From: an uncultured Halobacteriales archaeon
GTDB taxonomy: Archaea > Halobacteriota > Halobacteria > Halobacteriales > SW-7-71-33
DNA: 58,075 nucleotides
Assembly (NCBI GenBank): GCA_964402765.1
Contig: CAYODS010000001.1
Coordinates: forward strand, 1 to 58,075
Direction: 5' to 3'
How positions within the stretch are numbered: position 1 is the stretch's first letter; the number at the start of each line of letters is the position of its first letter. The position numbers and the translations under genes are program-made. Positions 6,033 through 21,685 of the stretch are shown piece after piece. The notes under the pieces are model-generated. The model did no database searches, was not told where the DNA came from, and saw only the letters and a program-made list of their open reading frames with translations.

Positions 6033-6608
6033 TCACTCCACCGGCGCCTCGACCGTGGTCTCGGTCCCGGTCCCGTCGGTGACGGTCATCTCGACCCGCG
6101 CGGGTCGCTCGCTCCCCACGGCCACCCTGACGAGCGCCACCGGGTACGTGGGGGCGTTGTCCCCCTTCTCGGGGTCCGCACCCCTCGCCACCGCCGCGCC
6201 CGTGATCCGCTCGTCGGTCCGGGCCAGGTCCGTCACCTCCACCCCGGACGGGTTCGACTTCGGCCACCGGGAGACGACCGACACCAGGATCTCGGTGTCG
6301 TACGCCGTCGTCTCGACGAACCCCTCCGCGGTTCCGCTCTGTCCCTCGGTGAGTGCGCCGAACCGGCGACCCTCGTCTACGTCGTCGAGCGGGACCCCTT
6401 CCCGTGCCGCACTCGCGGTCGTGAACACGTCGATCGCTGCCGTCGCCCCGTTCAGCGGATTCCGCGACGCACGGAACGCTCCCATCTGGAACGTGTCGTA
6501 CCCGACGCTGCCCGACGGCGTGTCGTCGGAGACACACCCGCCGAGGAGTGCCGAGAGTGCGGTCCCGGCACCTGCCAGGATCGTTCGCCGGTGTCGTGTC
6601 ACGAGCAC
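6033..6608 (-). CDS. Tat-signal lipoprotein, hypothetical
   Basis: The N-terminus TRHRRTILAGAGTALSALLGGC is a twin-arginine motif followed by a lipobox Cys. GTG start. Confidence 0.7.
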   Translation of the reverse strand: MLVTRHRRTILAGAGTALSALLGGCVSDDTPSGSVGYDTFQMGAFRASRNPLNGATAAIDVFTTASAAREGVPLDDVDEGRRFGALTEGQSGTAEGFVETTAYDTEILVSVVSRWPKSNPSGVEVTDLARTDERITGAAVARGADPEKGDNAPTYPVALVRVAVGSERPARVEMTVTDGTGTETTVEAPVE

Positions 6609-6713: not shown

Positions 6714-7319
6714 TCAGTCGTCGGCGGTGGCGTCGGTGCCGAGGTCGCGGGTGGTGTGTGGGTGCTGGCCGGCGACGGCGATGAGCGCGTCGACGTCGAT
6801 CAGCCCGATCCGCTCGGTGACCTCGTCGCCGTCACGGCGACGGGCGACGCCCTCGACGAGCGGGTGGTCGCCGTTGGGGGCGTCGTCGGGGTCGGCGCGG
6901 TCGATCTGGCTGACCGGGATCGGTTCGACGCCGACGATACGGTCGATCCGGACGCCCACCGGTTGTTGCCCGTCGTCGGTCTGGAAGGCGACGACGAACT
7001 GCCTGTCCCACTCGTTCGGCGCCGCGGGGAGGTCGAGCAGGTCCCACGGGTTGATGACGACGGTGATCGACCCCCGGATGTCGATGACGCCGTCGACGGC
7101 GTCGGCGGTGCGCGGGACCCGCGTGAGGGGGGTGGTCCTGATCACCTCCTCGACTTCGAGCACGGGGGCACCGTACAGGTGCCCGCCCAGGTCGAACACC
7201 GTGATGCGCTCCGTCTCCTCCTGGGGCTCGTCGACGTCGAGCACCGACTCCTCGTCCTCCTCAAGGAGGTCGGACTCCACGTCGACGTCCATCAGTTCCT
7301 CCGGCAACTCACCGGACAT
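6714..7319 (-). CDS. cheW: chemotaxis coupling protein CheW
   Basis: CheW-like domain (VFDLGGHLYGAPVLEVEEVIR...VIDIRGSITVVINPWDLL). Start set at ATG 7319 (MSGELPEEL) with the palindromic TAACGTTA / TATA-like element at 7346-7355, 27-33 nt upstream. The ORF extension to 7523 would cover the divergent cheY promoter. Confidence 0.9.
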   Translation of the reverse strand: MSGELPEELMDVDVESDLLEEDEESVLDVDEPQEETERITVFDLGGHLYGAPVLEVEEVIRTTPLTRVPRTADAVDGVIDIRGSITVVINPWDLLDLPAAPNEWDRQFVVAFQTDDGQQPVGVRIDRIVGVEPIPVSQIDRADPDDAPNGDHPLVEGVARRRDGDEVTERIGLIDVDALIAVAGQHPHTTRDLGTDATADD

Positions 7320-7482
7320 CGTACCCGCTACTGCTCCGCCGGGACACATAACGTTACTCCCCGTTCGACCCCGCCGTGGCGCCGTCCCCTCCCGTCCCGG
7401 GCTGGGTCGTCGCGTCGTTTCCCGTGGAGCGGCAACAGCATTTATGTCGTCCCCCCCGATACTGACCATCGGTGAAACCCGG

Positions 7483-7848
7483 ATGGCGAAAGAGGTCCTC
7501 ATCGTGGACGACTCCCAGTTCATGCGCAGTCTGCTGGAGCAGATCCTCGAGGACGACGATTACGTGATCGTGGAGGAGGCGGCCAACGGGGCGGAGGCGG
7601 TGAAACACTACCGGGAGCACGAGCCCGACATCGTGATGATGGACATCGTGATGCCGAAGTGCAACGGCATCAAGGCCACGGCGGCGATCAAGAAACTCGA
7701 CCGGGACTCTCGCGTGATCATGTGCACCTCCGTCGGCCAGCGCGAGAAGATGAAACTCGCCGTCAAGGCCGGTGCCGACGGCTACGTGACGAAGCCGTTC
7801 GAGGAGCCAAGCGTCCGCAAGGCCATCCAGGACGTCGCAGCCGCCTGA
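7483..7848 (+). CDS. cheY: chemotaxis response regulator CheY
   Basis: 121-aa single receiver domain (VLIVDDSQFMR, DIVMMDIVMP, YVTKPF). A TTTATG element lies at 7441-7446 upstream. Confidence 0.95.
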   Translation: MAKEVLIVDDSQFMRSLLEQILEDDDYVIVEEAANGAEAVKHYREHEPDIVMMDIVMPKCNGIKATAAIKKLDRDSRVIMCTSVGQREKMKLAVKAGADGYVTKPFEEPSVRKAIQDVAAA

Positions 7849-7855
7849 CGTTCCG

Positions 7856-9205
7856 ATGACCGGCGTTCTCGTCGTCGACGACTCCCGGTTCGTTCGTGAC
7901 GTCGTCGGTGACGCGCTGACCGATCACGGCTTCGAGGTCGCCATCGTCAGCGACGGCCACGATGCGGTCGAGTACACCGTCGCCCACGACCCGGACGTGG
8001 TGACGATGGACGTCGAGATGCCCGGTATGGACGGTATCGAGGCCACCGAGCGGATAATGGAGGAGAACCCCACGCCGGTCGTGATGCTGGCTGCCGACGA
8101 CGACGCCGACGCCACCCTCAGCGCGATCGCCAGCGGTGCCGTCGACTTCGTCGGCAAGGGCGGCGACCGCGACGACGTCGACGTCGAGACGGTCGCGGAC
8201 GAACTCGTCCGCACCGTCGAGGCCGTCGCCGGCACCCCGACGGACACGCTCACCAGGGGCACCCCCGGCGACGGCGACACGGACACGACCACGGCGGTGG
8301 ACGCCACGGACGACACGACGGCGATCGACGACGCGACCGCGACCGTCGACGACGTGGTGACCGACCTGACGGCGACCCCCGACGGGACCGACGAGACGAC
8401 CGAGGACCCGCCCGTCGACGGGTCGCGTGATGCCGTGGACACCGGACGGTCGGACGGAGGCGACGCCGACGACGTGGACGTGACCGACGGGGACACGGTG
8501 CGCGCCCGCCCCGCCCGTGCCGACGTGGACCCGGGCGAGATGGCGACCCGTGTCGCCCGGGCGGCAAGCGCCGTCGCGGACGAGGGGACGCCGACGACGG
8601 TCGTCGTCGGTGCCTCGACGGGCGGTCCCGGGATCGTCGAGGGGCTGTTGGCCGCGCTTCCGACCGGGATCGGCGCGCGGGTGGTCGTCGTCCAGCACAT
8701 GCCCGAGGCGTTCACCGGCCGGCTGGCGCTCCGCCTGGACGGCGTCAGCGACTACGACGTGCAGGAGGTGACCGCGGAAACCCGCGTCTCGCCCGACGAG
8801 GCCGTTCTCGCGAGCGGTGACCGGCACCTGGAGGTCGTCGAGGACGACGGCACCGACCTGGTCGTGGCGCCGCTTGACGGTGACCCGGTGAACAACGTCC
8901 GGCCCTCGGTCGACGTGACGATGGTCTCCGCCGCCGCGGTCCACGACCCCCTCGACCCGCTGGTCGGCGTCGTGCTCACGGGGATGGGCAGCGACGGCGC
9001 CCGGGGGACCGAGGCCATCGCCGACGCGGGCGGGGCGACGATCGCACAGGACCGACAGAGCAGTCCCGTCTACGGGATGCCGGGGTCGGCGGTCGACACG
9101 GGTGCCGTCGACCGCGTCGCGTCGGTCGACGCCCTCCCGGCGGCGGTCCGGGACGCGGTTCGCGACCAGCAACGGGAACGGCAGCGAGAGGAGGCACACG
9201 CATGA
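7856..9205 (+). CDS. cheB: protein-glutamate methylesterase/glutaminase CheB with extended Thr/Asp-rich linker
   Basis: N-terminal receiver (VLVVDDSRF, VVTMDVEMPGMDG) plus C-terminal methylesterase (VVVGASTGGPG, QHMPEAFT, LTGMGSDGA). The stop overlaps the cheA start (ATGA). Confidence 0.93.
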   Translation: MTGVLVVDDSRFVRDVVGDALTDHGFEVAIVSDGHDAVEYTVAHDPDVVTMDVEMPGMDGIEATERIMEENPTPVVMLAADDDADATLSAIASGAVDFVGKGGDRDDVDVETVADELVRTVEAVAGTPTDTLTRGTPGDGDTDTTTAVDATDDTTAIDDATATVDDVVTDLTATPDGTDETTEDPPVDGSRDAVDTGRSDGGDADDVDVTDGDTVRARPARADVDPGEMATRVARAASAVADEGTPTTVVVGASTGGPGIVEGLLAALPTGIGARVVVVQHMPEAFTGRLALRLDGVSDYDVQEVTAETRVSPDEAVLASGDRHLEVVEDDGTDLVVAPLDGDPVNNVRPSVDVTMVSAAAVHDPLDPLVGVVLTGMGSDGARGTEAIADAGGATIAQDRQSSPVYGMPGSAVDTGAVDRVASVDALPAAVRDAVRDQQRERQREEAHA

Positions 9206-12200
9206 GTGAGTACATAGGCGAATTCGTTCAGGAGAGCGAGGAGTCGATAACGGAGTTGAACAACGCACTCCTCGAACTGGAGCGCAACCCCGACGACGAC
9301 GCCGCGATGGACGACGTGTTCCGCACCGCACACACCCTGAAGGGGAACTGTGGGGCGATGGGGTTCACCCGGGCGAGCGACCTGGCGCACGCGATCGAGG
9401 ACCTGCTCGACGCCGTTCGCGTGGGGTCGCTGTCGATCACGCCGGAGCTGATGGACGAGGTGTTCGCCGCCGTCGACGACCTGGAGCGGATGATCGGGGA
9501 GATCGACCGCCACGGCGATATAAAGAGCGACCCCTCCAGCCGGATCGAGAGCCTGCGCTCGGAGATCGAGGACTCCACCGGGCTGGTGAAGCCCTCCGAG
9601 GAGGAGACCGAGCGACTGCTGGGCGGGGCCGACCGCCTGCCACGCAGCGACCACCGGGCCTTCCACGCGCGGTTCTCCCTGACCGCGCCCGGCAGCGCCG
9701 ACGCCGCAATCACCGCGCTGTCGGACGCCTTCGACCTCCTGGCGACCGACCCTGCCTCTCCCGAGGATCTTGCCGAGGCCGAGACGGTCGACGCCGCCTT
9801 CGGCAGCGCGGTCGACGAGGCCGCCGTCGCGGCCGCGCTCGACCCCGTCGAGGCCGTCGAGGACGCCATCATCACCGAGGTCGACCCCGGGGTCGTGGAC
9901 CGGGCGGTCGGGACCACGGCCGCGGACGCGGACGAGTCCGACGCCGACGCCGAGGTCGGCGACCCCGAGGAGATGGAGGTCGACGAACTGCTCGACCAGT
10001 TCGAGGAGTACGACGACCTCGACGAGGCGGTCGAGCGCGTCGACGACGTGGCCGGCCTGGAGAACATGGGTGACGCCGGTGCGTTCGACGACATCGTCGA
10101 GGAGGAGGTCGACCCAGCCTACGACGACGCCGAGACGGGGGCCGAGACCGGCGACGCCGCCGAGACCGACGCCGGCCCCGAACCGGCCGGCGCGGACGAG
10201 GAGGTCGAGGACGCGATGAGCGAGTTCCAGGACCTCCAGGAGGAGTACGACCGCGTCGGCCTCGATCAGATGGAGGAGGAACTGGAGGGCGTCGAGTTCG
10301 GCGAGTACGACCAGGAGGACGAGGTCGGCTTCGACGAACTGCTGGGTGACGACCTCCTCGACGAGGGCCCGGCGACCGCCGACGCCGAGGCGGACCCCGC
10401 CGAACCTGAGGCGGACCCCGCCGAGGCCGAAGCCGAAGCGGAGCCTGCCGAACCCGCAGAGGCGGAAGCGGACCCCGAACCCGCCGAGGCCGAAGCCGAA
10501 GCGGAGCCCGTCGAGGCAGAAGCGGACCCCGGACCCGCAGAGGCAGAAGCGGACCCCGAACCCGCCGACGCCGAGGCGGAGCCGACGGTGTCGGAGCCGG
10601 GGGAGGCGGCCGTCGAGGCGTTGGTCGAGTCGGCGCGGCCGCCGGCGACGCTGGATCGGGGGGTCCACCACGTCCGCATGGCGGTGCCGGCAGACGATCC
10701 CGACGCCGGCGAGGCGGTCGTCGAGGCGCTGCGGGACGCCTTCGACCTGCTCGGCACCGACCCCGCCGAGACGGAGGTCGTCGTCGGCGGGCACGACGGG
10801 GAGATCGACGCCCTGTTCGGCAGTGACCTCCCCGAGGACGAGGTCCGCGCCGCACTGCACGCCGTCGACGGCGTTCGGGCGGCCCACCTCACGGACGTGA
10901 CCGACCGCGTCGCCCCCGAGGTCCAGTCCGGAACCGACGCGGCCCCCGACCCGGCCGACGCCGGGCCCGCCGAGGTCGGTGTCGACGCCGACGCCGACGC
11001 GGACGCCGCCGAGGAGGACCTCGACCCCGAGGTGATCCAGGCAGAGGGCGAGATCGAGGACGCGATGAGCGAGTTCAAGCAGATGCAGCAGGCCTACGAC
11101 ACCGTCGGCCTGGACGAGATCGAGGACGAACTCGAGGACGTCGAGTTCGGCGAGTACGACGAGGAGGACGAGGTCGGCTTCGACGAACTGCTCGGCGAGG
11201 AGGCCGAGGCTGACCCCGCGGAGACCGGCGCCGAGCCCGCTGAACCCGAGGCCGAGGCAGACCCCGCCGACGCCGAGGCAGAGCCGGAGCCTGCCGATCC
11301 CGCCGAAGCCGACGCCGACGCGGAGCCGGAGCCCGCTGCCCCCGCGGAGACAGCGCCGGAGCCGGAGTCCGCCGACCCCGCTGAAGCCGACGCCGACGCG
11401 GAGCCGGAGCCTGCCGACCTCGCTGAAGCCGACGCCGACGCGGAGCCGGAGTCCGCCGACTCCGCGGAGACAGCAGCGGACCCCGCAGAAGTCGACGCCC
11501 ACGCAGAGCCCACCGAGGCGTCCGCCGACGCCGATGCGGAGCCCACCGAGGCGTCCGCCGACACCGACGCGGTCGACCCGGCGGCGCCCCCGACCGACGA
11601 GGCGGTCGCCGCGGCGGTCGAGGACGTCGAGACGACGCTCCCGGAGAGCCGGAAGGCGTACCACCTCGCCCTAGAGGTGCACACCGAACCGGACCGGAAC
11701 AACGGCAGTCGCGTCGTCGAGGCGCTGCGTGACGCCTTCGACCTCCTCGACACCCGGCCGCCGGAGCCGACCGTCGCGGCGGAGGACCCCGCCCGCCTGG
11801 AGACGGTGATCGGCAGTCACGTTCCCGAGTCCGAGATCCGCTCCGCGCTGGACGACGTCGAGGAGGTCGGGGTCGTCCACCTCACCGACGTGACTGACCG
11901 GGTGACCGCGGCGCCCGCCGCGGAGGCCGACGCCGATGCGGAGACGACGGACGCCATGACGGAGTTCCGCTCGATGCAGGAGCGGTACGACACCGTCGAC
12001 GTCGGAGAGATCGAGACGGAACTGGAGGAGGCCGACCTCCCCGGTATCGACACCAGCGAGGAGGTGGGCTTCGAGGACCTGCTCGAACCCGCCGAGATAG
12101 AGGACGAGCCCGTCGAGCCCGTGGCCGACGACGGCGTCGAGGCCGACGCCGGGCCGGCGACGGAGGGCGAGACGGACACGCCGTCCACGACGGCCGACGC

Positions 12201-14001
12201 CGAGGGTGGTGTCGACGCAGACACCGACACCGCCGAGGCCGACACCGGTGTCACGGCCGAGGACGACGTCGAGGTCACCGAGGTCGAGGTCGGAGAGATC
12301 GGCGACGTGGAGGGGATCGAGGACGTCGAGGACCCCGAGGAGATCGACCTCGAGGACATCGAGGTCGAGGGCGACCTGGACGACGTCGCGGTCAGTTCGG
12401 AGTTCGGCGTCGACGTCGACATCGACGCCTCCTCGGTCACCGGCGAGGACGGCGATGCCGAGTCGGCGTCCGAACCGGAGCCCGAGCCCGACCCGGAGCC
12501 GACGACCCCGGCGTCCGAACCAGAGCCGGAGCCGGAACCGGAGCCGACGACCCCGGAGCCCGAGCCCGAGCCGTCGGTGCCGGACGCGGCGACGGCCGAC
12601 GTGCAGACGATAAAGGGGATCGGGTCGGCGTACGCCGAGCGCCTCGCGGAGGCGGACGTGGAGACCGTCGGCGACCTGGTCGTCGCGGACGCCAGGGCGC
12701 TGGCCGACGAGACCGACATCTCGGACAACCGCATCGAGGAGTGGGTCGAGCGCGCGCCGGTGTCACCCGACGCGGTCCAGTCGGACGAACCGGCGGACGA
12801 CGCGGAGGCGGCCGACGCCACCAGGGAGACGGACGCGATCCAGTCGATCCGGGTCGACGTCGACCAGGTGGACGAGCTGCTGAACTTGGTCGAGGGGCTG
12901 GTGACGAGTCGGGCACGGATGCGGCGTGCGCTGCGTGAGGTCGACGTCGACGTCCAGCCGCTGGCCGAGGAGCTGGACGAACTCGACGTGATCGGCACCG
13001 AGATGCAGGACGTGGTGATGGACATGCGACTGGTGCCGGTGCGGACGGTCACCCAGCGGCTCCCCCGCGTCGTGCGCGACGTGGCCCGTGACCAGGGCAA
13101 GCGCGTGGCCTTCGACATCGAGGGCGAGGACGTCGAGGTCGACCGGTCGATCCTCTCGCGGATGAGCGACCCGCTGATCCACATGGTCCGCAACGCGGTC
13201 GATCACGGTATCGAGCCGCCCGAGGAGCGAGCCGCGGCCGGCAAGGACGAGGAGGGCCAGGTGACCCTGCGTGCCTACCGCGCCCGTGACACCGTCTACG
13301 TCGAGGTCGAGGACGACGGCCGGGGGCTGGATCCCGACGAACTCCGCGAGGCGGCCGTCGAGAAGGGGATGTACACCGAGGACGAGGCCGAGCGCGTCTC
13401 CGACGACGCGGCCCGCGAGCTGGTGTTCCACCCCGGCTTCTCGACCAACGAGGAGGTGACCGACGTCTCCGGGCGTGGCGTCGGGATGGACGTCGTCGCC
13501 ACAACCGTCGAGGACCTCGACGGCGAGGTCGAGGTGGAGAGCGAGCCCGGCCAGGGGACGACGGTCCGCCTGGCGCTGCCGGTGTCGGTCGCCATCTCCG
13601 AGGTGCTGTTCATGGAGGTCGGCGACGAGGAGTACGGCGTCCCGATCCGCGTCGTCGACGAGATCGAGGGCATGGGCGCCGCCCAGCCGGTCACCGACGG
13701 CGGCGAGGTCGTCCGCACGCCAAGCGGCGACGAGCGCGAGCTGATCGACCTGGGAGAGGCGATGGACGCTCCCGGTCGCGACGGGGACCGCGACATGGGC
13801 GGCCCCCAGGAGCGCGGGATGCTCGTCACCCTGGAGGACGACGTGCGCCAGGCGGCGATCCGCTGTGACCGGGTGCGGGGCCAGCAGGAGGTCGTCGTCA
13901 AGCCGTTCGAGGGGTTCATGGCCGACATCCCCGGGCTGAGCGGCGCCGCCATCCTCGGCGAGGGCGACGTCGTCAACATCCTCGACGTCGAGACGCTGTG
14001 A
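9202..14001 (+). CDS. cheA: chemotaxis histidine kinase CheA, giant 1599-aa form (P1, three P2-like modules, HhH, P3-P4-P5)
   Basis: Hpt domain with phospho-His in FRTAHTLKGN (CAC at 9331-9333). Dimerisation region SIRVDVDQVDELLNLVEGLV. HATPase (HMVRNAVDHGIE, DDGRGLD, GRGVGMD). C-terminal CheW-like domain. About 1080 residues of repeats are inserted between P1 and P3. Confidence 0.93.
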   Translation: MSEYIGEFVQESEESITELNNALLELERNPDDDAAMDDVFRTAHTLKGNCGAMGFTRASDLAHAIEDLLDAVRVGSLSITPELMDEVFAAVDDLERMIGEIDRHGDIKSDPSSRIESLRSEIEDSTGLVKPSEEETERLLGGADRLPRSDHRAFHARFSLTAPGSADAAITALSDAFDLLATDPASPEDLAEAETVDAAFGSAVDEAAVAAALDPVEAVEDAIITEVDPGVVDRAVGTTAADADESDADAEVGDPEEMEVDELLDQFEEYDDLDEAVERVDDVAGLENMGDAGAFDDIVEEEVDPAYDDAETGAETGDAAETDAGPEPAGADEEVEDAMSEFQDLQEEYDRVGLDQMEEELEGVEFGEYDQEDEVGFDELLGDDLLDEGPATADAEADPAEPEADPAEAEAEAEPAEPAEAEADPEPAEAEAEAEPVEAEADPGPAEAEADPEPADAEAEPTVSEPGEAAVEALVESARPPATLDRGVHHVRMAVPADDPDAGEAVVEALRDAFDLLGTDPAETEVVVGGHDGEIDALFGSDLPEDEVRAALHAVDGVRAAHLTDVTDRVAPEVQSGTDAAPDPADAGPAEVGVDADADADAAEEDLDPEVIQAEGEIEDAMSEFKQMQQAYDTVGLDEIEDELEDVEFGEYDEEDEVGFDELLGEEAEADPAETGAEPAEPEAEADPADAEAEPEPADPAEADADAEPEPAAPAETAPEPESADPAEADADAEPEPADLAEADADAEPESADSAETAADPAEVDAHAEPTEASADADAEPTEASADTDAVDPAAPPTDEAVAAAVEDVETTLPESRKAYHLALEVHTEPDRNNGSRVVEALRDAFDLLDTRPPEPTVAAEDPARLETVIGSHVPESEIRSALDDVEEVGVVHLTDVTDRVTAAPAAEADADAETTDAMTEFRSMQERYDTVDVGEIETELEEADLPGIDTSEEVGFEDLLEPAEIEDEPVEPVADDGVEADAGPATEGETDTPSTTADAEGGVDADTDTAEADTGVTAEDDVEVTEVEVGEIGDVEGIEDVEDPEEIDLEDIEVEGDLDDVAVSSEFGVDVDIDASSVTGEDGDAESASEPEPEPDPEPTTPASEPEPEPEPEPTTPEPEPEPSVPDAATADVQTIKGIGSAYAERLAEADVETVGDLVVADARALADETDISDNRIEEWVERAPVSPDAVQSDEPADDAEAADATRETDAIQSIRVDVDQVDELLNLVEGLVTSRARMRRALREVDVDVQPLAEELDELDVIGTEMQDVVMDMRLVPVRTVTQRLPRVVRDVARDQGKRVAFDIEGEDVEVDRSILSRMSDPLIHMVRNAVDHGIEPPEERAAAGKDEEGQVTLRAYRARDTVYVEVEDDGRGLDPDELREAAVEKGMYTEDEAERVSDDAARELVFHPGFSTNEEVTDVSGRGVGMDVVATTVEDLDGEVEVESEPGQGTTVRLALPVSVAISEVLFMEVGDEEYGVPIRVVDEIEGMGAAQPVTDGGEVVRTPSGDERELIDLGEAMDAPGRDGDRDMGGPQERGMLVTLEDDVRQAAIRCDRVRGQQEVVVKPFEGFMADIPGLSGAAILGEGDVVNILDVETL
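9655..12087 (+). repeat. threefold repeat inside cheA of a P2-like module plus an acidic motif plus a Pro/Glu/Ala linker
   Basis: P2-like modules at 9655-9897, 10660-10911 and 11653-11904 (..VVEALRDAFDLL.T.P...HLTDVTDRV). Acidic motifs at 10207-10356, 11056-11196 and 11950-12087 (EDAMSEF...VEFGEYD.EDEVGFDELLG). Confidence 0.8.
11503..11568 (+). repeat. 2 x 33-nt in-frame tandem repeat (AEPTEASADAD) within cheA
   Basis: gcagagcccaccgaggcgtccgccgacgccgat is followed directly by gcggagcccaccgaggcgtccgccgacaccgac. Confidence 0.85.
12469..12558 (+). repeat. 2 x 45-nt in-frame tandem repeat (SEPEPEP.PEPTTP) within cheA
   Basis: tccgaaccggagcccgagcccgacccggagccgacgaccccggcg is followed by tccgaaccagagccggagccggaaccggagccgacgaccccggag. 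Confidence 0.85.
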
Positions 14002-14131: not shown

Positions 14132-14752
14132 ATGAGTTCGAGCACTGAGGGTCTCAAGGTCGACATCAGGAAGCTGAGTCTCATCAACGAGATGGCCAAG
14201 GTCGGTACCAACGGCGTCGCGGAGAACATGTCCAAGCTCACCGGCGAGGACGCCCGCATGCAGGTGACGAAGACCAACTTCGTCGACGTCGCCGACATCC
14301 CCAATCAGGTCGAGGGCGGCAAGCGGGTCGGCGTCCGCATCCGCCTGCAGGAGGCACCACACGGTCACCTCCTGATCCTGTTCCCGGAGGAGAGCGCCAA
14401 GAAGATCACCTACCTGATGCTGTCGGACATGGTCGACGACGTCTCCGACGTGTCGGGTGACATGGCCCGCTCGGCGGTCGAGGAACTCGGGATGATAATG
14501 GGCAACGGGTTCATCACCGGGTGGGCTGACGTGCTGGGCAAGACGATCGACACCGCCACCCCGCAGTTGGTGTACGCCCCGCTGGCGGAGGTCGTCGAGC
14601 GCACCGCCGACCTGGGGGGCCAGGACCTGGCGCTCGTGTTCGACTCCTCGCTGGACGTGCCCCGCTACGAGATCGAGGCCGAGCTGTACGCCTTCCCCGA
14701 CCTGGAGGAGTTCGTCACGATGGTGAACAACATCGAGGCGACACCCGCCTGA
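14132..14752 (+). CDS. cheC: CheC-family CheY-P phosphatase (single CheC unit)
   Basis: 206 aa with CheC-type motifs (INEMAKVGTNGVAENMS, EELGMIMGNGFITGWADVL). Confidence 0.9.
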   Translation: MSSSTEGLKVDIRKLSLINEMAKVGTNGVAENMSKLTGEDARMQVTKTNFVDVADIPNQVEGGKRVGVRIRLQEAPHGHLLILFPEESAKKITYLMLSDMVDDVSDVSGDMARSAVEELGMIMGNGFITGWADVLGKTIDTATPQLVYAPLAEVVERTADLGGQDLALVFDSSLDVPRYEIEAELYAFPDLEEFVTMVNNIEATPA

Positions 14753-14753
14753 G

Positions 14754-16076
14754 ATGAGCGATGACACGGGCCCGGCGATGGAACTCGACGTGAACGCGCT
14801 GGGCACGTTCTACCGGATGGCGAGCGAGGGCGCCGGCCTCGCGGCGGGGCGACTCACCCACATGACCGGCGTGGACACCCGCGTCGGGGTGACACGTCTG
14901 AACTTCATCCGTGGCTCGAAGGTCCGCTCGGAGTTCGACGACGGCAGCCCGAAGGTCGGGGTACGCGTCGAGACGGAGGACGGTCTCGACGGGCACTCGA
15001 TGGTCGTGTTCGACCGCGAGAACGCCCTGCGGATCGTGCGGGCACTCGTCCCCGACGAGATGAGTGCCGCCGACGAGTTCGACGAGATGAACACCTCGGC
15101 GGTGACCGAGGTCGGCCAGATAATGAACAGCGGGTTCATCGACGGCTGGGCCGACGTTCTGGAGACGAAGATTGACCTCTCGCCGCCGGAGTTCATCACC
15201 GGCGACACCGCCGAACCGTTCATCGAGGACCTCTCGACGGCACCGACGGACGACGAGTTCGTCGTCCTCTTTCGCTCGAACATCGAGGCCGTCGACACCG
15301 AGGTGGGGTTCAAGCACTACTTCTTCCCCGAGCAGGAGTCGATCTCCGCGCTCGTGAACCGCCGTCGCGACGAGGACGCGGCGACGATCGACTACGCGAA
15401 ACTGGAGGGGTTCGACCGCATGGCAGAACAGGGTGCCCGGGAGGCGGCCGACAACATCACCACGCTGTCGGGCATCGAGACCGAGATCGAGATCCGGCGG
15501 CTCAACTTCGTCTCCCTGGAGGCGATCCCGGAGGAGGTCGGCGACCGCACGCTGGTCGGCTCTGCGTTCGAGTTCGAGGGCACCCCGTCGGGCTACCTCG
15601 TCTTCATGTTCGACGAGGACTCCGCAAAGGAGGTCGCCGAGGCGATGCTGCCGACGGCCGCGCCCGAGGGCGGCGGGATGAGCCAGATGGAACAGTCCGC
15701 GATAAAGGAGTTGGGCAACATCATGGCCTCGGGCCTGCTCGACGGGTGGGCGAACGTGCTCGACACGACGATCGATCACTCCACGCCACGGTACATCCAC
15801 GACGTTGGCGCCGCCGCCGTCGACCCGATCGTCATCGAGCTGGGCCAGAACCAGGAGTACGCGTTCGTGTTCGACACCCGCATCGAGGCCGCCGACCGAG
15901 ACATCGACTGTGAGATCTTCGCGATCCCCGACGAGGACGACCTGATGCGGGCACTGGACGACCTCGACGTCGACCGCGTGGACGAGGCCCCCACCACGGC
16001 GGAGTTCCCGGTCGACGAGGACCTGGACGACGACCTCGACGCCGACCCCGACGAGATAGAGCGCAGCGCCGAGTGA
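14754..16076 (+). CDS. double-domain CheC-like protein with acidic C-terminal tail
   Basis: Two tandem CheC halves (TEVGQIMNSGFIDGWADVL and KELGNIMASGLLDGWANVL). It starts 1 nt after the stop of the previous cheC. Confidence 0.88.
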   Translation: MSDDTGPAMELDVNALGTFYRMASEGAGLAAGRLTHMTGVDTRVGVTRLNFIRGSKVRSEFDDGSPKVGVRVETEDGLDGHSMVVFDRENALRIVRALVPDEMSAADEFDEMNTSAVTEVGQIMNSGFIDGWADVLETKIDLSPPEFITGDTAEPFIEDLSTAPTDDEFVVLFRSNIEAVDTEVGFKHYFFPEQESISALVNRRRDEDAATIDYAKLEGFDRMAEQGAREAADNITTLSGIETEIEIRRLNFVSLEAIPEEVGDRTLVGSAFEFEGTPSGYLVFMFDEDSAKEVAEAMLPTAAPEGGGMSQMEQSAIKELGNIMASGLLDGWANVLDTTIDHSTPRYIHDVGAAAVDPIVIELGQNQEYAFVFDTRIEAADRDIDCEIFAIPDEDDLMRALDDLDVDRVDEAPTTAEFPVDEDLDDDLDADPDEIERSAE

Positions 16077-16139: not shown

Positions 16140-16661
16140 ATGAAAACGTACGGGAGCGAACCGGGCGTGCCGGAGACGGACCCCATCCGCGTCGGTATCT
16201 CGGAGTTCGCGATAAGCGACGCCGGCCAGCGGATGAAGTCCTACGGACTGGGGTCGTGCGTGGCGGTGGCACTGTGGGACCCGACGACCGAGGTGGGGGG
16301 CCTCGCACACGTCATGCTTCCACACGGCGACGACCGCGACGGTGACGACCGCAAACCCGCGAAGTTCGCCGACACGGCCGTGCGGACGATGCTGCGACAG
16401 ATGGTCGAGAAGGGGGGTGACTACACCGCCGTCGAGGCGAAGATCGCCGGCGGGTCGGACATGTTCGAGTTCGACAGCTTCGACGAGGGGGTCGGCGAGC
16501 GCAACGTCGAGGCCGCACGCACCGAACTCGACCGGCTCGGCGTGCCGATCGTCGCCGAGGACGTCGGCGGCGAGGGTGGTCGCACGGTGGAGTTCGACAC
16601 CACCGACGGCAGCCTCGCCGTCCACACGCCCGAGACCGACGACGACCCCATCGAACTGTAG
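16140..16661 (+). CDS. cheD: chemoreceptor glutamine deamidase CheD
   Basis: 173 aa, with YGLGSCVAVALWD and GGLAHVMLP motifs typical of CheD. Confidence 0.92.
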   Translation: MKTYGSEPGVPETDPIRVGISEFAISDAGQRMKSYGLGSCVAVALWDPTTEVGGLAHVMLPHGDDRDGDDRKPAKFADTAVRTMLRQMVEKGGDYTAVEAKIAGGSDMFEFDSFDEGVGERNVEAARTELDRLGVPIVAEDVGGEGGRTVEFDTTDGSLAVHTPETDDDPIEL

Positions 16662-16681: not shown

Positions 16682-17608
16682 GTGCCCGACAGCCCAGACG
16701 ACTACCGCGTCGCGCCCGACCGCGCACTCAACAGCGACGGCGACCCCGACGAGGAGGGGTTTCGATCGCTGACCGGCTTCGTCGAGCGGGAACTGGAGTT
16801 CGCCACCAGTCACTACAACGACGACTACCTCAAGCGACGCTTCGCCTCGCGGATGCGGCGCCGCGGTGTCTCGACCTACGGTGAGTACCTTGAGGTCGTC
16901 ACGGAGGAGCCCGACGAGCAGCGCGCGCTGCTCGACGCGCTGTCGATAAACGTCACCGGCTTCTTCCGTGACCCGGAGGTGTGGGAGGGCGTCCGGGAGA
17001 TCCTGCGTGCGCTGACCGAACAGCGACTCCAGGTGACCGCCTGGAGCGCCGGCTGTGCGGACGGGCGCGAGCCGTACTCGCTGGCGATGCTGGCCGACGC
17101 CGACCCCGAGATCGAGGCGGCCAGTCTGGTGATAACGGCCACCGACATCAGCGAGGCGGCCATCGACAGCGCCCGGGAGGGCGTCTACCAGGGCTCACAC
17201 ACGACCGACATCCGGGGCGAACTGGACTTCCTCGAGAACCCCGGGCGGTACGTCGAGTCCGTCGACGGCGACCGCTACGCCGTCGTCGACCGGATCCGGC
17301 GGGCGGTCACCTTCCAGCAACACGACCTCATCAGGGACGACCCGAAGACGGATCTCGACCTGGTGCTGTGTCGCAACCTCACCATCTACATCGACAGCGA
17401 GTACAAGGAGCCGGTGATCGACACCGTCCGGCGCTCGCTGCGGCCGGGCGGGTACCTCGTCATCGGCAAGACCGAGACCATCCCGCGGTCGCTGCGGGAC
17501 GACTTCACCGTCGTCGACGGCGAGCGCCGGATCTACCGCCGCACGGTGCCCGACGAGGACGGCGGTCGCTCGCGGATCACCGGGATCGGCACGGACCGCG
17601 ACCGCTGA
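16682..17608 (+). CDS. cheR: chemotaxis protein methyltransferase CheR
   Basis: INVTGFFRDPEVWE, AWSAGCADGREPYSLAM and LCRNLTIYID motifs. GTG start. Confidence 0.92.
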   Translation: MPDSPDDYRVAPDRALNSDGDPDEEGFRSLTGFVERELEFATSHYNDDYLKRRFASRMRRRGVSTYGEYLEVVTEEPDEQRALLDALSINVTGFFRDPEVWEGVREILRALTEQRLQVTAWSAGCADGREPYSLAMLADADPEIEAASLVITATDISEAAIDSAREGVYQGSHTTDIRGELDFLENPGRYVESVDGDRYAVVDRIRRAVTFQQHDLIRDDPKTDLDLVLCRNLTIYIDSEYKEPVIDTVRRSLRPGGYLVIGKTETIPRSLRDDFTVVDGERRIYRRTVPDEDGGRSRITGIGTDRDR

Positions 17609-20365
17609 TCAGTCGTCGTCTCCGGTCGCGTCCTCGTCGCCCTCCTCGCCCAGCGGCCCGCCGGGGATGTTGCTCTCGTCGGCCTCCTCGAGGTCCTCGT
17701 CGTCGAAGTCGATGTCCAGCTCCAGGCGCTCGGTCTCGGGTTCGACCGTCGGGTCGTCGGGGGTGTCGCCGTCGCCGTCCGCGGGGGCGGTGACGCCAGT
17801 CGCCGTGTCCTCGGTGTCGGCACCCGACGCACGGTCGTCCTCGTCGCCGGACGCGTCGGTGAACGGGTTCCCGCCCGTCGCCGGTTCGTCCTCGCCGGGG
17901 ACCGTGATGCCGTCCACGCCGCCGTCGTCGCCGCCGTCCCCGGGGTCGTCCGAGCCGACGGTGCTGACGGCGTCGGTGTCGCCTCCGTCGTCAGCGTCGT
18001 CGCCGGGCACCTCGAACAGGGTCTGGTCCACCTCGCGGGTCTGGAACCGGCCCAAGGCGTCGCTCAGGCGGCTGGCCTGCTCCGAGAGACCGGAGGCGGA
18101 GTCGGTGACCTCGGTGACGGCGGCGGTCTGCTGCTCGGCGGCGGCGGCGACGTTCTCGGCCTCCCGGGAGGTGCGGTCGGAGATGCCAGCGACCTCGTCG
18201 ATCATCCCGACGACCTCCTCGGTGGAGGCGGCCTGTTGCTGGGTGGCGGCGCTTATCTCCTGGACGCCGCCGTTGGTCTCCTCGGCGTACTCGGCGACCT
18301 CGTCCAGGGCCTCGACGGCGTTGCGGACGGAGTCGGTGTTGTCGGCGATGCGTTCACCCGTCTCTCGCACGGAGTCGACGGTCTCGTCGGTCGTGGCGTG
18401 GATGTGCTCGATGCGCTGCTCGATGTTCTTGGCGGCGCGTTTGGTCTCGCCGGCCAGTTCCTTTATCTCCTGGGCGACGACGTCGAAGCCGTCGCCCTCG
18501 CCCTCGGCCTCGTCGGCCCGGGAGGCCTCGATGTTCGCGTTCAGGGCGATCATGTTGGTCTGGTCCGCGAGTTCGGCGATCACCTCGACGAGTTCGTCGA
18601 TCTGCTCCATCTCGGCCTCCAGGCGCTCTATCTCCTCGACGGCCTCCCTGCTGTCGGCCTCGATCTGGTTCATGCCGGCGATCGCCTCCCGGGCGGCCTC
18701 GCGGCCACGGCTGCCGGCCTGTGCGGTCTGCTCGGAGAGGTCGGCCACCTCGTTCGAGAGGGCGGCGATCTCCTGGACCGTCGTCGAGAGGTCGCTCATC
18801 TCGCCGACGACGGACTGCAGGGACTCGTTTTGCTGTTCGGCGCCGTCGCTGATCTCCTGGATCGACTCGGTGACCTGCTGGCTGGCGCTGCGGACGCCCT
18901 CGGCGGACTCGGTGACCTCCTCGGAGGAGCGGGCCACCTCGTCGGCGAACGCCTTCAGCTGGGCGACGGTGCGCTCTATCTCGCCGATCATGGCGTTGAA
19001 CTCCTCGGCGATCTCCCGCATGGCCTGGCTGCGCTGTGAGGGCTCCATCCGCCGCCCCAGGTCGCCCGCGGCGACGGCCTGCATCACGTCGCGGTACTCG
19101 GTGGCCTTCGACTGGAGGTGCTGGCTGGTGCGTTCGGCCTCCTCGCGGGCGCTCTCGGCCTCCTCGCGAGCCGCGCGGGCCTCCATTATCTGGTTGCGCA
19201 GGGCGTCGCGCATGTTCGCCATGCTCTCGTACAGTTCACCGATGTCGTCGACGCGGTCGGTGCTGAAGTCCACGTCGAGGTTGCCACGGCGCATCTCCTC
19301 GCTTTTCAGCCGCAGGCGGTTGATCGCCGCCAGCGTGGTGTAGCCGATGAACACGCCGAAGAGGGCGATGACGACCACGCCGCCGATCGTCACCAGCAGT
19401 CCCATCCGCTCGACGGTCGTCACGAAGCCCATCGCCTGGGACTCGGGGGTGTGCACGAGCACCGTGTAGTCGGTGCCGGCGACGTTGGCGTACGACGGGA
19501 TGAACGTCTCCTCCTCGCCGTCGACCGCCGAGGCCGACAGCGCAAGCGTCCCGCCGTCGGGGGTGACGTACTCGCCGACGTTTGGCACGATCAGCGAGTC
19601 GTTGTTCTGGGCACGCTCCTCCTGGGCCTTGAACAGCGCGTCGGCCTGGCCCTGGCCCCGCGGGTACTGCTCGAAGATGGCCTGGCCCGTGCTGTCGTAC
19701 ACCACCTGGAACCCGCCGCCGGCCCTGTTGTCGACGACGTAGACGAACGCCGAGGCGTTCTTGCCGCTGATGGCACTGTCGTAGTCCCGCACCCTGACGC
19801 CGTGGACGAGCACCTGGCTCCCGTCGCCGACGGGCGCGGCGTACATCAGCCGCGGCGGGTCACCGCTTGCGGTGCCGACCGCGCTGCCGGCGGTCCCGAT
19901 CACCCGGGGACCGCCCTCGACCCGGTCCTCCGGGAGCGCCCCCGACCAGTCGACGTTCTCCAGGGCCGGCGGCCCGTCGGACTCGGTCGTCGCGGTCACC
20001 GTGTCACTCTCCAGGTCGACAACGTACACGTTCTCCACCCCGGAAAAGTCCCCGGCCCGGCTCCGCAGGAAGAAGCCGTTGACGGCGTTCTCCCCGTCCC
20101 CGAGACGGTCGTCGACGCTTGCCGCCAGCGACCCCGTCGCCTGCAGGTTCCGCTGGTGCCAGGTCCGGAACGTGCGTGACTCCTGGGCGGCGATGTCCGC
20201 GAGGTCGCTCTCCACCCCCGTCTCGACGGTCGCCTGGATCTGGTCGGTGGCGACGAACCCTATCATCCCGATCGTCAACCCGAGCACCAGAAGCGTCATC
20301 CCGAACTTCAGGACGTAGCTCCGGCGGACGAACTCGGGTACCAGCGACCGGAGCACCCCGCTCAT
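17609..20365 (-). CDS. methyl-accepting chemotaxis transducer (Htr) with large extracellular domain and 142-aa acidic C-terminal tail
   Basis: Two TM helices flank an extracellular domain of about 290 aa, followed by a HAMP domain and the conserved signalling hairpin [19 protein letters not shown]. Start set at ATG 20365 (MSGVLRSL) with ATTTAT (complement of 20391-20396) 26-31 nt upstream. Confidence 0.92.
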   Translation of the reverse strand: MSGVLRSLVPEFVRRSYVLKFGMTLLVLGLTIGMIGFVATDQIQATVETGVESDLADIAAQESRTFRTWHQRNLQATGSLAASVDDRLGDGENAVNGFFLRSRAGDFSGVENVYVVDLESDTVTATTESDGPPALENVDWSGALPEDRVEGGPRVIGTAGSAVGTASGDPPRLMYAAPVGDGSQVLVHGVRVRDYDSAISGKNASAFVYVVDNRAGGGFQVVYDSTGQAIFEQYPRGQGQADALFKAQEERAQNNDSLIVPNVGEYVTPDGGTLALSASAVDGEEETFIPSYANVAGTDYTVLVHTPESQAMGFVTTVERMGLLVTIGGVVVIALFGVFIGYTTLAAINRLRLKSEEMRRGNLDVDFSTDRVDDIGELYESMANMRDALRNQIMEARAAREEAESAREEAERTSQHLQSKATEYRDVMQAVAAGDLGRRMEPSQRSQAMREIAEEFNAMIGEIERTVAQLKAFADEVARSSEEVTESAEGVRSASQQVTESIQEISDGAEQQNESLQSVVGEMSDLSTTVQEIAALSNEVADLSEQTAQAGSRGREAAREAIAGMNQIEADSREAVEEIERLEAEMEQIDELVEVIAELADQTNMIALNANIEASRADEAEGEGDGFDVVAQEIKELAGETKRAAKNIEQRIEHIHATTDETVDSVRETGERIADNTDSVRNAVEALDEVAEYAEETNGGVQEISAATQQQAASTEEVVGMIDEVAGISDRTSREAENVAAAAEQQTAAVTEVTDSASGLSEQASRLSDALGRFQTREVDQTLFEVPGDDADDGGDTDAVSTVGSDDPGDGGDDGGVDGITVPGEDEPATGGNPFTDASGDEDDRASGADTEDTATGVTAPADGDGDTPDDPTVEPETERLELDIDFDDEDLEEADESNIPGGPLGEEGDEDATGDDD

Positions 20366-20455
20366 ACAACCTCCTCTGTGGGTGGGACCCATAAATCCTC
20401 ACCGCCGCGACGAGGGGTGAAAGGTACAAGCCAACCCGGGTCGTAGGGCCGGGCG

Positions 20456-21685
20456 ATGACCGACGGTGACCTGGACGCCTTCGTGCGACGGACGCGGGCC
20501 ACCCTCGACGCCGAGGGCGACCTCTCCGCCGCCAACACCGACCTCCGGGTCGTCCTTCCGCTGCTGAAGACCCTTGGCTGGGACGTCCACGGCCCCGAGG
20601 TGGTCGCTGACTACGTCGTGAGCGAGGACGACGGTGTCACCGTCGACTTCGCGCTCACGCTGGACGGACGACCGACGGCGCTCGTCGTCACCGCCGGCAC
20701 CGGCACCGACCTCGACCGGGACCACGGGCGCCGACTCGGCACCGCGATGACCGCCGCCGGCGTCGACCAGGGACTGGTCACCAACGGCCGGTCGTTCGTG
20801 TTCGTCGCCGTCGAGGACGACGAGTTACGGCAGGTGCAGTGCTCGCTCGCCGACCTGCCCGACCGGGAGTCACTGCTGTCGCTGTACACGAAGCGGGCCG
20901 CCAGGCAGCGCCGCCGCCAGCGCCGCGCACAGGACCGCCGGCGGGTCGCAGAGCGACTCCGTGACCGACGCGAGGCCACCGTCGAGCGCGTCGTCGACGC
21001 CCTCACCGACGACGTGGGCGACCCCGTCGCCGACGAACTCGCGGCCGCCGCCGCTGACTTCGTCGACGCGACGGTCGAGGCGCTTTCCGACGGTGACCAC
21101 CCGCGGGACGGTGCCGCTCCCGCCCCCTCGACCGAGGCCGGGGCGGAGACGTCCGAAGAGGACGCCCCCCCGACGCCGGACGTCGCCGGTGACGCGGACC
21201 CGGACCCCGACGCCCGCGTCTCGGCGGACGCCGAGAGCGCGAACGGCACCGGCCAGGCGGCCAGCGACGGCGGCGCCACGCCCGCGCGGGACCCACGCGA
21301 CGAGGCCGCACCGATGGCCCGCAACGACGGCGACGACGAGTACGTCGCCCGCTTTTTTGACGAGCACTCCTCGGTGGGCGCCGTCGGCACCACCTCTCCC
21401 GCCGGCGCGGTCGCACAGACCGTGCAGTACCTCGTCGAGCAACACGCACTGGACAACCGCCTAGACCTCCCGTGGACTCCAGAGGACGCCGACGCCCTCG
21501 ACCCCTCGATCGCCGTCGTCAACCGGGCGCCGGTCCACCCCGGCGGCGACCGGATGACCAACCCGCGCCAGATCGCAAACGGCTATTACGTCGAGACGGC
21601 GATGGGCACCGACGCCGCCCGCGAAGTGGTCGGGTCACTCGCCGACCTCTCGGGACTGCGAGTGATGTTCCAGGGCGAGTGGTGA
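20456..21685 (+). CDS. hypothetical protein; N-terminal restriction-endonuclease-like (HSDR_N-type) fold with degenerate catalytic motif, acidic disordered centre, conserved C-terminal domain
   Basis: The N-terminus (LRVVLPLLKTLGWDV...VTVDFALTLDGRPTALVVTAG...LVTNGRSFVF) follows the HSDR_N pattern, but the E-x-K position reads T-A-G. 409 aa, acidic. Confidence 0.65.
   Translation: MTDGDLDAFVRRTRATLDAEGDLSAANTDLRVVLPLLKTLGWDVHGPEVVADYVVSEDDGVTVDFALTLDGRPTALVVTAGTGTDLDRDHGRRLGTAMTAAGVDQGLVTNGRSFVFVAVEDDELRQVQCSLADLPDRESLLSLYTKRAARQRRRQRRAQDRRRVAERLRDRREATVERVVDALTDDVGDPVADELAAAAADFVDATVEALSDGDHPRDGAAPAPSTEAGAETSEEDAPPTPDVAGDADPDPDARVSADAESANGTGQAASDGGATPARDPRDEAAPMARNDGDDEYVARFFDEHSSVGAVGTTSPAGAVAQTVQYLVEQHALDNRLDLPWTPEDADALDPSIAVVNRAPVHPGGDRMTNPRQIANGYYVETAMGTDAAREVVGSLADLSGLRVMFQGEW

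Follow-up and report, generated by a model that had tools for sequence, protein, structure and literature searches.

Among the chemotaxis genes of haloarchaea, one locus raises the question of how a CheA histidine kinase can carry a very large insert between two of its standard domains, and what this insert may do. The locus lies in a 58,075-nucleotide stretch of contig CAYODS010000001.1 (assembly GCA_964402765.1) from an uncultured Halobacteriales archaeon, referred to here as the window. Its cheA gene encodes 1599 residues, with some 1080–1110 of them separating the P1 domain from the P3 domain. We find that this region contains one unit three times, each copy consisting of a domain of ~85 residues followed by an acidic motif of ~50 residues (ACm). 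In the following, we describe the units and the kinase that carries them, their distribution and conservation in other haloarchaea, and the roles that they may have in docking response regulators.

Three repeat units between P1 and P3

The cheA open reading frame (ORF) extends from 9202 to 14001 on the + strand, as do all cheA features given below, and encodes 1599 residues plus a stop codon with no interruption. The ATG start overlaps the stop codon of cheB in the sequence ATGA. The G+C content at third codon positions (GC3) is 0.92 across the whole ORF, and the G+C content of the window is 66–75%. The P1/Hpt domain (aa 3–95, 9208..9486) is matched by Pfam Hpt with 67.9 bits (cut-off 24.6) and contains the phospho-accepting His44 (9331–9333) in the motif TAHTLKG. 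The other end of the protein is a contiguous core in canonical order, formed by the P3 dimerization domain (aa 1214–1275, 12841..13026; H-kinase_dim, 40.8 bits), the P4 kinase domain (aa 1323–1461, 13168..13584; HATPase_c, 72.4 bits), and the CheW-like P5 domain (aa 1467–1599, 13600..13998; CheW, 52.8 bits), all with scores exceeding the Pfam cut-offs. These boundaries are in agreement with an earlier note on this DNA, which had described an uninterrupted frame from Hpt to CheW, a phospho-accepting His at codon 44 in TAHTLKG, and about 1080 residues between P1 and P3.

The NCBIfam model CheA_Halo (NF041336, 666 positions) gives a score of 705.3 bits, below its equivalog cut-off of 950 bits. 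The best-matching stretch covers only model positions 242–666 (aa 1164–1599 of the protein), and the rebuilt region between P1 and P3 accounts for the lost score. The similarity of its core and its synteny mark the protein as an orthologue, though it is no equivalog under the NCBI threshold. It is a real CheA chemotaxis histidine kinase with an ordinary catalytic core.

A self-comparison of the full protein by BLAST gave the diagonal only, and the repeats emerged after the units had been cut out. In BLASTP comparisons of the excised units, unit 1 matches unit 2 with E = 5e-23 and 3e-12, and unit 3 with E = 4e-9 and 8e-9, while units 2 and 3 match with E = 3.5e-25. Hidden Markov models (HMMs) made from the copies were used to locate the domains and the acidic motifs. 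The domains are found at aa 150–232 (module 1, 9649..9897), aa 485–572 (module 2, 10654..10917), and aa 816–902 (module 3, 11647..11907), all three between P1 and P3 with flexible linkers on both sides. Paralogous modules are 31–43% identical, modules 2 and 3 being the closest pair (43%), and the core motif ALxDAFDLLxTxP is common to all three copies. The earlier note had read the insert as one unit present three times, with an acidic motif of about 48 residues and Pro/Glu/Ala/Asp linkers in each. The BLASTP matches between units (E = 8e-9 to 3.5e-25), the HMM placements, and the linker composition confirm this reading. A six-frame translation of the window searched with the HMMs of both parts of the unit gave no match outside cheA.

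Several lines of evidence identify the modules as P2 domains of the Thermotoga type. Module 2 is matched by the Pfam P2 family (PF07194, gathering score 23 bits) with 26.6 bits in the context of the full protein. When the modules are scanned in isolation, module 2 scores 17.6 bits, module 3 scores 14.7 bits, and module 1 is not matched. Module 1 is the positional orthologue of the one P2 in other haloarchaeal CheAs, and a precomputed PF07194 match is located at this position in many single-P2 orthologues. An alignment of 54 such modules (A1) was used as a profile against the sequences in the PDB, and its best match was the P2 domain of Thermotoga maritima CheA (1u0s_A, E = 5e-4), in register.

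The AlphaFold2 model of module 2 has a mean predicted local distance difference test (pLDDT) score of 89.7 and the topology βαβαβαβ. The same topology is predicted for module 1, modelled inside unit 1, with a pLDDT of ~90. In Foldseek searches of the PDB, both modules have the CheY-bound T. maritima P2 (1U0S_A) as top match, with template modelling (TM) scores of 0.75/0.80 and a root-mean-square deviation (rmsd) of 2.0 Å for module 2, and a TMt of 0.74 and an rmsd of 2.1 Å for module 1, over 85–86 columns. Module 1 also matches the Escherichia coli P2 (1FFG_B, TMt 0.78). Modules 1 and 2 are therefore predicted to have the open-faced β-sheet/α-helix fold of P2. Despite this shared fold, the identity to the T. 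maritima domain is just 12–24%, and the haloarchaeal modules have their own invariant motif, ALxDAFDLLGTxP. The earlier note had proposed modules resembling the Thermotoga/Bacillus-type P2, to be checked by a Pfam scan and by comparison of predicted structures with a CheA-P2/CheY complex. In the scan, Hpt, P2 (for module 2), H-kinase_dim, HATPase_c, and CheW were all matched, and in the comparison the predicted P2-like folds of modules 1 and 2 fit best to such a complex, 1U0S.

Each P2 module is followed by a copy of ACm, at aa 334–383 (ACm1, 10201..10350), aa 617–666 (ACm2, 11050..11199), and aa 914–962 (ACm3, 11941..12087), as located by HMM and BLASTP. The consensus of the motif is xDEVxDAxAxFxELKxEVDxVGFDELQDELxELEFDExDxEDEVGFDELLG. 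Between module 1 and ACm1 lies a further acidic segment present in a single copy, motif A (aa 256–300, 9967..10101; MEVDELLDQFEEYDDLDEAVERVDDVAGLENMGDAGAFDDI), with the consensus VDELLDEFDEFDDLDEMVExVDDVxGFEDMGDAGSFDD and no match to a Pfam family. AlphaFold2 predicts helices for ACm1 (pLDDT ~72–77) and, with low confidence, for motif A. We considered whether motif A and ACm could be part of the P2 fold and rejected this, as the model of unit 1 has a predicted TM score of 0.40, a pLDDT of 55–77 for the motifs, and no confident packing. From these models, both motifs look like helical segments inside a disordered linker.

The remainder of the insert is formed by linkers rich in Pro, Glu, and Ala. 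Linker 1 (aa 384–484, 10351..10653) has 42–54% gaps in alignments with relatives, and linker 2 (aa 667–815, 11200..11646) is in addition rich in Asp. These two linkers contain 31–33% Ala, 15–17% Pro, and 36% Asp plus Glu, with zero Lys and nearly zero Arg. Linker 3 (aa 963–1130, 12088..12591) is acidic and rich in Pro and Glu. The DNA of the linkers is made of imperfect in-frame tandem repeats with periods of 21, 27, 42, and 45 nt. Overall, the net charge of aa 136–1204 is −323. We found nothing specific in the literature on linkers or acidic motifs of haloarchaeal CheAs.

An old triplication in a small clade

At the DNA level, the repeat copies are 62–80% identical to each other. The same order of modules is present in P0002–P0006, five 90%-identity clusters that hold 11 sequences from JGI, ENA, and NCBI and are 47–76% identical to the window protein. 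The triple layout also occurs in contigs of metagenome-assembled genomes (MAGs) of uncultured Halobacteriales. Furthermore, a 77-kb contig of an independent JGI assembly (L008) carries the syntenic orthologous locus, from creatininase to GST. The divergence of the copies, together with these independent syntenic assemblies, identifies the triplication as an old duplication and not an artefact. Each module is closest to the module at the same position in P0002–P0004, with identities of 58–83% between positional orthologues, and the triplication therefore predates the divergence of these proteins. The triplication is thus real, old, and conserved.

Conservation differs strongly along the insert. 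In an alignment of five proteins, the three P2 modules, motif A, the three ACm copies, and a helix-hairpin-helix (HhH) domain described below are 39–94% identical with at most 2% gaps, while the linkers are 10–67% identical and mostly heavily gapped (up to 73%). Each of the three modules retains 16–19 of the 21 positions that are at least 90% conserved in the single-P2 rows of A1. In addition, each module type has its own invariant signature across P0001–P0004, namely FGSAV..AVAAAL for module 1, RGVHH/DALFGSDL for module 2, and DRN/GSHV.E..IR for module 3. From this pattern of conservation, the modules look functional.

The copies also bear signs of gene conversion or concerted evolution. Units 2 and 3 of P0005 are almost identical in both P2 and ACm, and in P0004 the C-terminal half of ACm1 equals that of ACm2. 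In the window protein, the closest ACm pair is ACm1 and ACm2, and the closest P2 pair is modules 2 and 3.

To place the protein among its relatives, we surveyed the best-scoring 120 homologues, all of them haloarchaeal CheAs (from Natrialbaceae, Haloarchaeobius, Halostella, Haloterrigena, and others). Their lengths range from 1007 to 1599 aa, with a median of 1184.5. By HMM, 114 of them have one P2 or none, and 108 have exactly one. In the usual layout, P2 is located at about aa 150–240 and is followed by motif A (101/120) and a single ACm (75/120). The hyperacidic tether has a median length of 440 aa, with 38% Asp plus Glu and 1% Lys plus Arg. Single-P2 haloarchaeal CheAs of 1506 and 1578 aa exist, so that a CheA of great length is no exception among haloarchaea. 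The earlier note, which had compared the protein with textbook CheAs of 650–700 aa, overstated this aspect.

The number of P2 copies is more distinctive. When 1.84 billion cluster representatives were scanned exhaustively by HMMER for the halo-type P2 profile, 62 proteins were returned at E ≤ 1e-3, and three strong P2 copies were found in only one of them, P0004. In essence, the triple-P2 type is therefore a single cluster, at 50% identity, of uncultured Halobacteriales. What is new here is a triple P2 within the class Halobacteria, confined to one small uncultured clade, together with an acidic motif duplicated along with P2 and an HhH domain inserted before P3.

The HhH domain (HHH_5, PF14520) occupies aa 1133–1184 (12598..12753), just ahead of P3. 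It scores 30.1 bits within the full protein and 37.5 bits in isolation, against a gathering score of 27. Among the 120 homologues, it is present only in the six triple-P2 relatives. In the alignment of five proteins, it is 57–93% identical and free of gaps. A homologue search with the HhH segment returned just one partial protein, from Haloferacaceae. Matches to PDB sequences are weak (E = 0.07–1), the best being the HhH N-terminal extension of Haloarcula L32e and the N-terminal domain of Rad51. The earlier note had recognized the repeat units and overlooked both this domain and motif A.

Comparison with known systems places the protein close to long CheAs with a single P2. The canonical haloarchaeal CheA, of the Halobacterium salinarum type (~666 aa), shares the P1-P2-P3-P4-P5 logic and a comparable che operon, but has one P2 and a short linker, whereas the window protein has about 1000 additional residues. 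A short CheA from MAG A07HR67 (L003) is 61% identical in its best-matching segment and has P2; motif A and ACm are absent from it, and no HhH is seen in its sequence. Outside the triple-P2 clade, the nearest relatives are long single-P2 CheAs of 1000–1578 aa (from Natrialbaceae, Haloarchaeobius, Halostella, and others, such as the 1286-aa CheA of Haloterrigena turkmenica), with 53–63% identity in the best local alignment. They share P1, P2 at about aa 150–238, motif A, ACm at about aa 335–420, the acidic tether, and P3–P5, and differ in having a single P2+ACm cassette and no HhH.

CheAs with more than one P2 have been described before. In a survey of 13,673 CheAs (Berry, Andrianova & Zhulin 2023, PMC10782961), most have one P2 and some have duplications; P2 was duplicated in the ancestor of Borreliales, and other cases suggest independent events. 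In the portion of its Table S3 considered here, dozens of archaeal CheAs have the layout Hpt,P2,P2, from all across Thermococcales (including Pyrococcus horikoshii), Methanomicrobiales, and Methanosarcinales, and a single CheA, with 1134 aa and from Methanococcoides methylutens, has Hpt,P2,P2,P2. The same portion includes haloarchaeal CheAs of 1014–1231 aa without comment, and its sorted multi-P2 block contains none from class Halobacteria with more than one P2. For CheA2 of Borrelia burgdorferi, two P2 domains have been modelled and proposed to raise the local concentration of CheY-P (PMC10703414).

These precedents from Borreliales and Table S3 overturn the claim of the earlier note that three P2 domains are an undescribed architecture, and a further one is found in P0156, an unrelated CheA of 981 aa from AT-rich DNA, which has three Pfam P2 domains (155 bits in three stretches) as an independent triple-P2 case. 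The catalogued multi-P2 CheAs resemble the window protein in having more than one P2 between P1 and P3. They are much shorter (730–1134 aa among the entries considered), and a co-duplicated acidic motif, a hyperacidic Pro/Glu/Ala tether, or an HhH insertion is not reported for them in the portions of these sources considered here. Since they belong to different lineages, the duplications are probably independent. Moreover, the nearest outside relatives are single-P2 proteins and the three-copy type forms one cluster, which suggests that the halobacterial triplication arose independently of the described cases. A protein of 872 aa, P0136, contains P2 six times in nearly identical form, with only a CheW domain after these repeats, and may be a fragment or a mis-assembly.

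Proposed docking of CheY and CheB and alternative roles

P2 is known to speed phosphotransfer by docking CheY and CheB (reviewed in PMC10782961), and from this established role we infer docking by each of the modules. We estimate a probability of roughly 70% that the protein is the single class-F1-type CheA of this archaeon, in which three P2+ACm cassettes on acidic tethers provide multivalent docking of CheY and CheB. The ancestral layout, which most related haloarchaeal CheAs have, would have been one Thermotoga-type P2, motif A with ACm, and a hyperacidic disordered tether of several hundred residues. In the ancestor of the small uncultured clade, the P2+ACm cassette would have been copied twice more into the tether, and the HhH domain would have been inserted before P3. 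Each P2 copy would dock the receiver domain of CheY and/or CheB and hold it near phospho-P1. A CheA dimer would then offer six docking sites on stiff, strongly negative Pro/Glu/Ala spacers. At the receptor array, response regulators could thereby be captured from a wider radius and reach a higher local concentration. An effect on the stoichiometry of CheY and CheB, as put forward in the earlier note, is plausible.

Several observations weigh against multivalent docking. More than half of CheAs can do without P2 (PMC10782961), so that the kinetic effect of additional copies may be small. Along the chain, 350–700 residues separate modules 2 and 3 from P1, and the isolated modules 1 and 3 do not reach the cut-off of Pfam P2. 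The low identity to T. maritima P2 makes the conservation of a CheY interface unreadable from sequence. Finally, halo-type P2 domains are also found on VirB4/TraG-like ATPases, as described below, so that CheY may not be the only partner of this domain.

A possible but rather unlikely alternative is that the copies have divided the docking work, each being specialized for another partner (CheY, the receiver of CheB, or another receiver or Che protein), and that they sort outputs instead of raising avidity. Such a division would be in keeping with the situation in E. coli, where a single P2 is contested by CheY and CheB. The identity between paralogous modules (31–43%) is well below that to the positional orthologues in P0002–P0004 (58–83%), and the invariant residues specific to each module type weakly support partner specialization. 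Against it, only one cheY and one cheB are found among the annotated ORFs of the window, scanned to about 38.3 kb, and the core motif ALxDAFDLLxTxP is retained in all copies. In P0005, modules 2 and 3 are nearly identical, so specialization would not be universal in the clade.

We regard as very unlikely the reading in which repeat expansion produced the additional P2+ACm copies as by-products that are tolerated, folded beads that set the length of the tether without docking anything. The linker of in-frame tandem repeats with a length that varies widely among relatives, the signs of gene conversion between the copies, and the dispensability of P2 in so many CheAs (PMC10782961) would fit such a spacer. 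Inert beads would not be expected to remain as modules 2 and 3 and their ACm copies do, free of indels in relatives whose linkers have fallen to 10–40% identity with up to 73% gaps, with 16–19 of 21 family-conserved residues in both modules and a predicted fold at a pLDDT of ~90 for module 2.

An artefact of assembly or gene calling, for which one could cite the repetitive DNA of 72–74% G+C and an apparent metagenomic origin of the contig (the genome records closest to it are MAGs from uncultured Halobacteriales), is rejected, because the copies are too divergent for an assembler to collapse or expand, the same module order recurs in five or more diverged relatives that were assembled separately (in JGI, ENA, and NCBI data), among them the syntenic 77-kb contig, and GC3 stays at 0.92 along the entire ORF.

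ACm is located shortly after P2 in the more distant proteins P0138, P0146, and P0163, and it was duplicated jointly with P2 in the triple-P2 clade. This co-inheritance suggests that the two work as a pair. A homologue search with a 40-sequence ACm profile (A3) returned none at E ≤ 1e-3, probably owing to a compositional or word-index problem; run locally, the same profile scores 56–77 bits on most CheAs.

Since the rate of phosphate transfer from CheA to CheY and CheB is set by P2, the number of P2 copies and the length of the tether would be natural tuning knobs for signal gain and adaptation. Close relatives with one or three P2+ACm cassettes, on acidic tethers of about 140 to 900 residues, would constitute a natural test series. 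All these CheAs act at molar salt, where electrostatics and diffusion are unlike those in E. coli. The conserved acidic motifs are candidates for new interaction sites in haloarchaeal CheA and are absent from current domain-database models. The practical consequence is modest, and a documented pattern is extended rather than overturned. As leads, we see the P2+ACm cassette, the HhH insertion, and the P2-bearing ATPases of conjugation type.

P2 domains outside CheA and the che operon

Unexpectedly, P2 domains of the halo type were also found outside CheA. Two VirB4/TraG-like P-loop ATPases of about 1015 aa (P0139 and P0141) have a C-terminal P2, matched by Pfam P2 with 29–31 bits, and in P0139 this domain is followed by an ACm-like tail. 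The gene of P0141 (1805–4861 of L009) is located in a cluster resembling those of conjugation or type IV secretion systems, with a PrgI_like/TraC-like protein, DUF8128, and a TraG-D_C coupling protein.

It is tempting, though speculative and on balance unlikely, to regard P2 and the acidic helical motif as a portable two-part cassette for docking receivers. The pair was copied as one unit in the triple-P2 clade, both parts are adjacent in more distant P2-bearing proteins, and the pair is met again in a conjugation-like cluster of haloarchaea, where it forms the C-terminal part of VirB4/TraG-like ATPases. If this is true, three cassettes on polyelectrolyte tethers together with HhH would make CheA a multivalent scaffold. 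Such a scaffold could concentrate or partition CheY and CheB around the array beyond the reach of a single-P2 kinase.

The cheA gene is part of a canonical haloarchaeal che operon, with the order cheW/cheY-cheB-cheA-cheC-cheC-cheD-cheR-MCP (methyl-accepting chemotaxis protein). Upstream of cheA are cheY (7486..7848, +; about 120 aa, starting with MAKEVLIVDD; Response_reg, 108 bits) and cheB (7856..9205, +; 449 aa), the latter with receiver and methylesterase domains by domain scan. Their products are the presumed docking partners of the P2 modules, and the orthologue of CheY in L008 has 120 aa. The divergent cheW is listed as an ORF of 269 aa (6714..7523, −), with the CheW domain at aa 107–248. 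Its true start is probably internal, at MSGELPEEL, and the orthologue in L008 has 201 aa. Downstream of cheA are two copies of cheC (14132–14752 and 14754–16076, both +), cheD (16140–16661, +), cheR (16682–17608, +), and the MCP gene (17609..20392, −), whose product has HAMP and MCPsignal domains. Further flanking genes that were scanned comprise housekeeping genes and a second MCP.

CheB has an acidic linker of ~140 aa (aa ~107–249), rich in Asp, Thr, and Gly, between the receiver and the methylesterase domain, and CheB of L008 is likewise long (417 aa). An HMM search of the window found neither P2 nor ACm in this linker or in the N-terminal extension of CheW. Two ORFs of high GC3 with no Pfam match flank the che cluster, at 20456–21685 (+, 409 aa) and 6033–6608 (−, 190 aa). 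In L008, a 447-aa gene without a Pfam match is located at the matching position after cheR.

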